In this document: one piece after another, positions 36,084 through 36,851 of the stretch
Layout: the number at the start of each line of letters is the position of its first letter
Numbering within the stretch: position 1 is the stretch's first letter
Notes under the pieces: generated by a model
Told to the model about the DNA's origin: nothing
Seen by the model: the letters and a program-made list of their open reading frames with translations, nothing else
Database searches by the model: none
Made by a program: the position numbers and the translations under genes
Virus record (IMG/VR): IMGVR_UViG_2623620497_000008
Coordinates: 1 to 43,789 of that record
Length of the DNA: 43,789 nt
Source: a virus
Taxonomy: Duplodnaviria; Heunggongvirae; Uroviricota; Caudoviricetes
Direction: 5' to 3' (one strand)

Positions 36084-36107
36084 GTCGGGTCTCCTCTAAA
36101 CAGTTTT

Positions 36108-36136
36108 AATATACATATTGTATTCTTTTCTTGCAA
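36108..36136 (-). promoter_or_regulatory. pR-like promoter: -35 TTGCAA (36131-36136), 17-bp spacer, -10 TATATT (36108-36113)
   Basis: Hexamers identical to the pL candidate; overlapped by operator site 1. Confidence 0.5.
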
Positions 36137-36182
36137 GGTAAATATACAAATTGTGACTCGAAGAAAGATATACAACTTGTAT
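36109..36182. promoter_or_regulatory. OR operator region: three repressor-binding sites with ATACA-N3-TGTAT symmetry (centres about 36117, 36150, 36176)
   Basis: ATATACATATTGTAT, ATACAAATTGTGA, ATACAACTTGTAT between cro and cI. Confidence 0.55.
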
Positions 36183-36191
36183 CATTTGGGT

Positions 36192-36851
36192 ATGAGCATG
36201 AAATGGTATGACCTAGCAAAGTCCCTCATGAAAACGAAGGGCATAAACCAGGAAGAGCTGGCAGAGCATCTCGGGATCACCAAAGGTGCCGTTAGTCATT
36301 GGCTAAACGCAAGGAGAGAGCCCAGCCTGGAGGACATAGCTAAAATTCTTCGCTTCCTCGGCAAGAATAATTTTTCTGTGGGTGCTGGCGGCATGATAAT
36401 TGATGAAAACATCAAGGGTGATGTTGAGTACGTTGGGCCCTATAAGCGCGGCAACGAATATCCAGTGCTTAGTAGTGTTCAGGCTGGATCGTGGCGAGAG
36501 GCTATAGAACCTTATTCCATCAAAGATGTTGATCTGTGGCTTGAGTCGAATGCACATATCCAAGGGGAAGCGTTCTGGCTGCTTGTTGAAGGCGATTCCA
36601 TGACGTCACCAGTCGGGCTAAGCATTCCAGAGGGTACCTACGTTTTGTTTGATACCGGCCGAGAGCCAGTAAATGGCAGCCTTGTGATCGCAAAGCTATC
36701 CGAATCAAACGAAGCGACATTCAAAAAGCTGATTATTGATGGGGGCCAAAAGTACCTGAAGGGCTTAAACCCTCAATGGCCATTGGTTCCCATCAACGGA
36801 AACTGTCGAATCATTGGTGTGGCCGTAGAAACTAAGTTAAGGCTTGTGTGA
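36192..36851 (+). CDS. cI: CI-like repressor (N-terminal HTH, C-terminal S24 LexA-like autopeptidase domain)
   Basis: HTH (QEELAEHLGITKGAVSHWLN), Ala-Gly cleavage site, GDSM serine and downstream Lys; ATG 36192 likely leaderless (track ORF begins at GTG 36153). Confidence 0.8.
   Translation: MSMKWYDLAKSLMKTKGINQEELAEHLGITKGAVSHWLNARREPSLEDIAKILRFLGKNNFSVGAGGMIIDENIKGDVEYVGPYKRGNEYPVLSSVQAGSWREAIEPYSIKDVDLWLESNAHIQGEAFWLLVEGDSMTSPVGLSIPEGTYVLFDTGREPVNGSLVIAKLSESNEATFKKLIIDGGQKYLKGLNPQWPLVPINGNCRIIGVAVETKLRLV

Follow-up and report, generated by a model that had tools for sequence, protein, structure and literature searches.

Does the 108-bp segment between two divergent helix-turn-helix (HTH) protein genes of a virus of the Caudoviricetes act as a genetic switch like that of phage lambda, and are its operators of a new specificity? 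The segment belongs to IMG/VR record IMGVR_UViG_2623620497_000008, which was analysed over its whole length of 43,789 nt (called the window hereafter), and lies in a lambdoid early region that runs opposite to the lambda map as it is usually drawn. In left-to-right order, this region contains a cII-like gene, a cro-like gene, the 108-bp intergenic segment and a cI-like gene, the last encoding a two-domain repressor (HTH plus S24 autopeptidase) opposite the small Cro-type HTH protein (Table 1). The segment is probably the right operator (OR) of a prophage immunity region with a lambda-type switch, and three inverted repeats within it are very probably the sites bound by the cI-like and Cro-like proteins, as predicted from their sequence and arrangement. 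The locus is an uncharacterised lambdoid switch of known type, and its operator motif is not new. The initial annotation of this DNA had proposed a lambda-like switch with a new operator specificity. The location of the operator between a gene for an HTH_3 protein and one for an HTH_3 plus Peptidase_S24 protein bears out the first part of this proposal, whereas the novelty was overstated: the consensus WTACRAWWTGTAT was proposed as a putative operator for Salmonella phage epsilon34 in 2008 (Villafane et al., 2008, PMC2629481), and the recognition helix, TKGAVSHWLN, is the same in the cI-like protein as in the repressor of that phage.

Operator sites and promoters

The sites in OR have the form of a 13-bp inverted repeat, ATAC-N5-GTAT. 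Reading of the sequence confirms the initial coordinates of the three sites and the distances between their centres (33 bp between OR1 and OR2 and 26 bp between OR2 and OR3), which place the centres at -75, -42 and -16 relative to the ATG at 36192. A common half-site consensus had been ascribed to all three; it holds for sites 1 and 3 but only in part for site 2, the right half of which is imperfect. Matches to ATACANNNTGTAT with one mismatch or none number 5 in the 43.8-kb window, a count attained in 0 of 100 shuffles (0.74 expected), and exact matches to ATAC-N5-GTAT also number 5 against 0.32 expected, 4 of them falling in two 60-bp clusters. When the window was scored with a weight matrix built solely from the sites of eight other loci, the top four hits were OR1, OL1, OL2 and OR3 (Table 1), OL denoting the left operator described below, and the next best hit scored 10.0 bits. 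Chance occurrence of the sites is ruled out by this enrichment, the clustering and the matrix ranking.

Table 1. Coordinates of the immunity-region features in the window (bits, weight-matrix score; 36136>36108, read on the minus strand)
Feature	Position	Strand	Sequence or signature	Remarks
cII-like activator gene	35604..35825	-	Pfam Phage_CII, E 1.1e-12	73 aa
PRE-like establishment promoter	35803..35835	+	TTGC-N6-TTGA (35803-35816), 13 nt, GATACT (35830-35835)	
cro-like gene	35865..36083	-	Pfam HTH_3, E 1.7e-10	72 aa
Right operator (OR) region	36084-36191			between cro-like and cI-like genes
PR	36136>36108	-	-35 TTGCAA (36136>36131), 17-nt spacer, -10 TATATT (36113>36108)	promoter scan
OR1 (site 1)	36111-36123		ATACAtatTGTAT, also written ATACATATTGTAT	centre 36117; 24.3 bits
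OR2 (site 2)	36144-36156		ATACAaatTGTGA, also written ATACAAATTGTGA	right half imperfect; centre 36150; 9.5 bits
CTCGAAG beside OR2	36157..36163	+	TCGAAG (16-nt spacer) or CTCGAA (17-nt spacer)	candidate weak PRM -35
OR3 (site 3)	36170-36182		ATACAactTGTAT, also written ATACAACTTGTAT	centre 36176; 20.3 bits
Candidate PRM -10	36180..36185	+	TATCAT	6 nt before ATG 36192; overlaps OR3
cI-like repressor gene	36192..36851	+	Pfam HTH_3 and Peptidase_S24	219 aa; WP_004191591.1
OL3	38294..38306		ATACAaaaTGTTA, degenerate	34 bp upstream of OL2; 9.8 bits
OL2	38328..38340		ATACGtatTGTAT	21.2 bits
PL	38340..38368	+	TTGCAA at 38340, 17-nt spacer, TATATT (38363-38368)	promoter scan
OL1	38353..38365		ATACGtttTGTAT	25 bp from OL2; 22.7 bits

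The promoter scan also recovered the cro promoter of the initial annotation, PR, the -10 hexamer of which shares 3 nt with OR1 as had been claimed. Its start would lie near 36101, which puts the centre of OR1 at -16, and the Shine-Dalgarno (SD) sequence of the cro-like gene (AGGAGA, 36095>36090) follows between PR and the cro ATG. On the other strand, the candidate maintenance promoter for cI (PRM) combines the TATCAT hexamer over OR3 with CTCGAAG, a putative -35 element abutting OR2. No other plus-strand promoter was accepted on reading OR, where no -10 above 4/6 has an acceptable -35, and the palindromic TTGCAA of PR has no -10 partner on the plus strand. A LexA box was rejected as well: in the E. 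coli SOS box, which we take to be CTGT-N8-ACAG, TGTAT...ATACA has the opposite arrangement, and reading of OR gave no CTGT-N8-ACAG.

Enterobacter phages BHUENT6 and ENT1 and Erwinia phage Midgardsormr38 match the cro-OR-cI segment at 70-75% identity, and relatives of the repressor are found in prophages of Scandinavium, Buttiauxella, Kosakonia, Yokenella, Silvania and Serratia, in 80 IMG/VR viral contigs and in 7 of 5,426 complete E. coli genomes (six at 99.4-99.9% identity). Of 55 distinct related right operators, 49 have their site centres at -75/-42/-16 relative to the first cI ATG, and the others deviate from these positions by no more than 1-2 nt. The position of OR1 and its A/T-only centre are kept in all 55. 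The right half of OR2 is TGTG, never TGTAT, in 55/55 at a fixed position, and the site has invariant columns in a 9-locus alignment, where the adjacent CTCG, present in 52 of the 55, is invariant as well. A central triplet with G/C occurs in OR3 in 53/55, in OR2 in 2/55 and in OR1 in none. The promoter elements are retained likewise: the TTG of the PR -35 and its -10 TATAYT persist across the set, a TATNAT hexamer lies over OR3 in 54/55, separated from the ATG by 6 nt in 52/55 and otherwise by 7 nt. In the 48 distinct sequences that are in register, the ATAC/GTAT quartets hold 1.93 bits per position, compared with 1.10 in other intergenic positions.

This organisation extends beyond the enterobacteria. 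In prophages of plant-associated Pseudomonas (P. syringae group; loci L021-L037, L067 and L073), where cI is 48% identical, ATACA-N3-TGTAT operators are centred at -76/-43/-17, and the cI-proximal site, half-degenerate and G/C-centred, is clearly the weakest. The same placing of a -10 hexamer before the ATG is also found in these loci and in ST64T and epsilon34. The immunity module spans Enterobacterales and Pseudomonas. Another group of loci (L009-L011, L013, L015-L017, L157-L158) encodes repressors with the same C-terminal domain and another N-terminal domain (MEKKK...LT..Q), next to a different repeated motif, AATACC-N4/5-GGTATT; these sequences make the group a clear case in which immunity has changed through domain swapping.

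A second cluster of the same sites, at 38294-38365, is the left operator. It lies 2.2 kb from OR and was absent from the initial annotation. The hexamers of its promoter, PL, are identical to those of PR, OL1 shares 3 nt with the PL -10 in the same register as OR1 at PR, and the PL -35 begins at the final base of OL2. In a comparison of 72 distinct left operators, the OL1-OL2 distance is 25 bp in 72/72 and PL is conserved. Pattern matching finds in 51 of them a third site, degenerate in one half, 27-34 bp upstream of OL2; variants with the other half degenerate were seen on inspection of the rest. An A-rich box, AAAAA(A)TAAA (38272-38283), stands about 10-15 nt upstream of OL3 and is kept in L001, L002, L003 and epsilon34 (L077), where the surroundings have otherwise diverged. 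Directly upstream of the left operator and facing away from PL is a minus-strand open reading frame (ORF) of 67 aa (38024-38227) with a good SD sequence, AGAGGG; it has no Pfam match, no promoter was found for it, and it is annotated as hypothetical in E. coli Ec1117. Downstream of PL, the leader contains a CCGGC-AAC-GCCGG hairpin. The first ORFs are tiny (window 38369-38450), with no recognisable gene for an N-like antiterminator; in the E. coli copy, the first gene after these that bears a name encodes a cell-division inhibitor.

Start of cI, proposed mode of action and alternatives

The cI-like gene has an ATG at 36192 (ATG1) and another in frame at 36198 (ATG2). The only SD-like bases, GGG at 36188-36190, are 1 nt from ATG1, which is too close, and 7 nt from ATG2. 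The PGAP/RefSeq protein begins at ATG1, and homologues with a single ATG (ST64T, mEp021 and Pseudomonas) start at the equivalent codon, four codons before a conserved Trp; for these two reasons, ATG1 is likely to be the start. The GTG at 36153, at which the longest form of this ORF begins, was rejected as it is inside OR2, lacks an SD sequence and is unmatched by homologues. Given the placing of the -10 hexamer, the transcript would begin with the A of the AUG and carry no SD sequence. This arrangement (TATCAT, 6 nt, ATG) agrees with what we take to be that of lambda PRM (TAGATT, 6 nt, ATG) and recurs in all the clades compared. In lambda, the promoter-proximal site covers the -10 and spacer, the -10 hexamer precedes the cI ATG by 6 nt, and the mRNA is leaderless. 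From this geometry, we consider a PRM start at or within 1-2 nt of ATG1 rather likely, and a leaderless maintenance transcript of cI is plausible. The leaderless-looking start without an SD sequence in the initial annotation thus stands as regards the GGG and the TATCAT, although ATG2, which has GGG 7 nt away, had been missed. No RNA structure was detected at the putative leaderless 5' end (z = -0.03). A long leader from a distant promoter had been named as the finding that would speak against a leaderless start. It does not discriminate, because a PRE-like promoter is present (Table 1) and a long-leader cI mRNA is to be expected beside any leaderless one.

In the proposed mechanism, the cI-like repressor and the Cro-like protein would bind the three ATAC-N5-GTAT sites. 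OR1 covers the spacer and -10 of PR, and its occupation would shut off cro, cII and replication; OR3 likewise lies over the spacer and -10 of the weak rightward PRM. The centres of OR1, OL1 and OR3 fall 16 bp before the predicted starts of PR, PL and PRM, respectively, and each site would block its promoter. PRM would start at the A of ATG1 to give a leaderless maintenance mRNA as in lambda, with the degenerate OR2 in the activating position; in lambda, OR2 is also at -42 from PRM, where cI activates this promoter. Since CTCGAAG, abutting OR2, is a poor -35-like element, PRM probably needs activation, and two acidic residues of the cI-like protein align (with 3bdn) opposite lambda E34 and D38, presumably the positive-control residues. 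The always-weak OR2 would probably be filled with the help of a neighbouring dimer. The affinity of OR3, which combines consensus contact bases with a G/C centre, is probably lowered by indirect readout, and cI would then repress its own promoter only at high concentration. For the 933W repressor, a central G-C in the site lowers affinity about 3-fold by indirect readout, and according to the same study the central bases of the operators are read by the P22 and 434 repressors too (PMC3317979). OL1, OL2 and OL3 would control PL, a promoter identical to PR, and a cII-dependent PRE would supply the long-leader cI mRNA during establishment.

Several points weigh against this reading. PRM was not called by the promoter scan and was assigned from its conserved -10 only, its proposed -35 being very poor (2-3/6 match). 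OR2 is clear of the PR -35, and the OR1-OR2 distance is 33 bp compared with 24 bp in lambda. The score of OR3 nearly equals that of OR1, unlike lambda OR3, and early self-repression would be possible. Neither OR2 nor OL3 is significant by score, the mean shuffle maximum being 10.4 bits, and the case for both hence rests on positional conservation. Several positions that we take to be those of lambda cooperativity mutants differ in the alignment with lambda cI; their conservation is mixed and not decisive. In the literature searched, no binding, transcript-mapping or genetic data were found for relatives of the repressor. The conserved GG and ATG2 suggest SD-dependent initiation at 36198 on at least some transcripts, and the repressor of lambdoid phage 933W binds three OR sites non-cooperatively (PMC3317979).

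Cooperative binding of repressor dimers, which the initial annotation had assumed, is somewhat favoured here on the layout of the sites. In a switch of the 933W type with the same operators, each site would instead be filled by its own affinity, the degeneracy of OR2 and the G/C centre of OR3 would set the order, and the spacings would reflect promoter geometry. Besides the 933W precedent and the differing cooperativity positions, it is favoured by the promoter elements between the sites, which could explain all the fixed spacings: the PL -35 starts on the last base of OL2, and the candidate PRM -35 abuts OR2. This alternative is nevertheless unlikely, given that 933W cI is only 26% identical to the cI-like protein, that the C-terminal domain of the latter aligns throughout with that of lambda cI (E 2.5e-26), and that a site always weak at the activating position is most easily filled via its neighbour. 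Far less probable is a switch in which only the sites at 36111-36123 and 36170-36182 function and the middle element is kept as part of the PRM -35 or upstream region. The epsilon34 record (EU570103) does annotate only OR1 and an 'OR2' that is the cI-proximal site, the middle site scores in the chance range, and the adjacent CTCG is conserved alongside it. On the other hand, the left half of the middle site (TATAC) never varies and equals the true half-sites, TGT is retained on the right, the register to the other sites is fixed in 55 sequences, and in the Pseudomonas relatives the middle site, TTACAATATGTAT, matches with one mismatch at the same -43 position.

As for translation, cI might be initiated at ATG2 with GGG as a weak SD sequence, on a transcript that starts a few nt upstream of ATG1 or elsewhere and is not leaderless. 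ATG-NNN-ATG is present in 55/55 right operators, and GG at 36189-36190 (-3/-2) in all but three, with 7 nt between GG and ATG2. The two features co-occur across clades, both being present in this type and in epsilon34 and both absent from the ST64T, mEp021 and Pseudomonas loci, and the annotation of Midgardsormr38 uses ATG2. A transcript from the TATCAT -10 would, however, lack the GG unless it started unusually near the hexamer, single-ATG relatives begin at the position of ATG1 and share its -10 geometry, PGAP uses ATG1, and ATG1 is invariant though the codon after it varies. We therefore regard initiation at ATG2 alone as doubtful and the leaderless start at ATG1 as the better account of the maintenance transcript; on long-leader transcripts, initiation at ATG2 guided by the SD sequence may well occur. 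A dual-start device that would accommodate the double ATG and the GG, in which leaderless PRM mRNA uses ATG1 (MSMKW...) and long-leader PRE mRNA uses ATG2 (MKW...), is a more speculative and improbable idea; if true, the establishment and maintenance repressors would be isoforms with N-terminal arms of different length and possibly of different operator affinity.

Comparison with known switches

Epsilon34 is the system in which the same operator motif was proposed. Its repressor (gp46) is 41% identical to the cI-like protein overall, with the shared recognition helix, and its Cro (gp47) is 48% identical to the Cro-like protein. Its sites, ATACAcatCGTAT, TTACGagtTGTGA and ATACAaatTGTAT, are centred at -75/-42/-16 in the same layout as in the window, and it also shares the ATG-NNN-ATG with GG upstream and an OL pair. 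With the same recognition helix and the same half-site bases, the repressor and sites of the window appear to be of epsilon34-type specificity. The C-terminal domain of the epsilon34 repressor was described as sharing about 80% identity with the repressors of lambda and HK97 (PMC2629481); that of the window repressor is of the phage L type, unlike that of epsilon34. The epsilon34 operators are an in-silico proposal, with two OR and two OL sites annotated in GenBank EU570103, and in the literature searched the motif was found only in the 2008 paper and no binding data were found. In EU570103 (L077, 2261-2332), the degenerate middle site is missed and the cI-proximal site is labelled 'OR2', probably an annotation error.

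Among the repressors of epsilon34, ST64T and 933W compared pairwise, the closest named full-length relative is c2 of Salmonella phages L/ST64T, with 52% identity over 216 aa. In ST64T, the sites centred at -77/-43/-17 are ATACAtttCGTAC, ATACAataTGTGT and ATACAtctCGTAA, of which the second also ends in TGTG, and the -10 AATAAT lies 6 nt before the ATG, a geometry like that of the window. Unlike in the window, the ST64T recognition helix is TQGAIGHWLN, the outer half-sites end in GTAC or GTAA, and ST64T has a good PRM -35 (TTGTCA) and a single ATG without GG. In its record (AY052766, L076, 1459-1503), the start assigned to the c2 coding sequence is an ATG that lies within the middle site, 42 nt ahead of the one that homology supports, which is probably an annotation error as well. 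As a close relative, 933W was rejected (cI 26% identical, operators different), and it serves here only as a precedent for non-cooperative binding and for indirect readout; VT2-Sa is listed among the nearest relatives of epsilon34 (PMC2629481). Phage mEp021, the repressor of which is 52% identical in the N-terminal domain, was rejected too, since its long intergenic region has only one OR2-like element, ATACGtttTGTGA, and the mEp021 paper describes no operators.

The locus resembles lambda in the divergent cI and cro genes, three OR and three OL sites, a cII/PRE module and a cI with an S24 domain. The cI-like protein aligns with lambda cI (3bdn) at E 1.6e-27, its C-terminal domain over the whole length of that of lambda cI. 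A98-G99, S136 and K178 stand opposite lambda A111-G112, S149 and K192, which we take to be the cleavage site, the Ser nucleophile and the Lys base of RecA-stimulated self-cleavage. Since the Ala-Gly site and the Ser/Lys dyad are retained, the repressor should be SOS-inducible. Besides the wider OR1-OR2 spacing and the position of OR2 clear of the PR -35, differences from lambda are the 13-bp sites (ATAC-N5-GTAT) compared with 17 bp, the consensus contact bases in OR3 and the second in-frame ATG. The Cro-like protein also differs in that it lacks the lambda-Cro fold and is instead an all-alpha HTH_3 protein paralogous to the repressor domain; it shares 34% identity (E 7e-11) and a similar recognition helix with the N-terminal domain of cI. 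In this respect the locus is like 434 and P22, in which Cro is a paralogue of the repressor domain, and 434 Cro and 434 repressor, which share one fold, are among the structural matches to the window Cro. Short sites with non-contacted central bases are another likeness to 434 and P22. No close sequence relationship to these phages is detectable, and the half-sites differ, those of 434 being ACAA-N6-TTGT. The difference between A/T and G/C centres parallels 434, P22 and 933W (PMC3317979), the effects on affinity in the window being predicted by this analogy.

PDB entry 28tn ('lambda repressor-like protein from Escherichia coli', released 2026-03-11) is identical to the window Cro at 69 of 72 residues, and a model of the latter superposes on it at TM (template-modelling) scores of 0.8-0.9. 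The entry name gives no function or DNA target, and no paper was found for it; the locus supplies both a probable function (Cro) and a probable DNA target. Otherwise, the value of the analysis lies mostly in annotation. Operators, promoters and a probable cI start are provided for an immunity type found in about 80 viral contigs, in prophages of more than ten genera and in 6 of the 5,426 complete E. coli genomes; this type is linked to epsilon34 and phage L, and the two-site annotation of epsilon34 and the c2 start of ST64T are corrected. The conserved design rules are that OR2 lies at -42 and is always degenerate, that OR3 alone has a G/C centre, that OR1 and OR2 stand one more helical turn apart, and that the ATG is doubled. 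They are testable variations on lambda and 434 themes and not a new kind of switch.

Neighbouring genes and minor features

The PRE-like promoter spans the start codon of the cII-like gene. The spacing between its repeat and its -10 agrees with that of lambda PRE as we assume it to be (TTGC-N6-TTGC, 13 nt, AAGTAT). Equivalent TTGC-N6-TTGY boxes are present in L002, ST64T and epsilon34, and the epsilon34 record labels its box a PRE site. A GC-rich hairpin between cro and cII (35857-35873) is terminator-like on the plus strand, where transcripts from PRE would run into it. A ParB/HTH_ParB-like protein of 265 aa is encoded between cII and the replication genes (34721-35518, minus strand).

An Rfam search gave no match in or near the operator region. 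Elsewhere in the window, at 27642-27801 (minus strand), a tRNA gene (61 bits) adjoins a match to the isrJ family of Hfq-binding small RNAs (57 bits; gathering score 37). Just past the cI stop codon begins a 29-nt direct repeat, ATGCCGCAGACGTACAGGAAGCATGGGTA, the two copies of which (36860-36888 and 37063-37091) are identical at 28 of 29 positions. The repeat flanks a 49-aa ORF (36882-37031) with a hydrophobic core and no Pfam match, and the arrangement resembles an insertion of a small cassette or the duplication of a junction.

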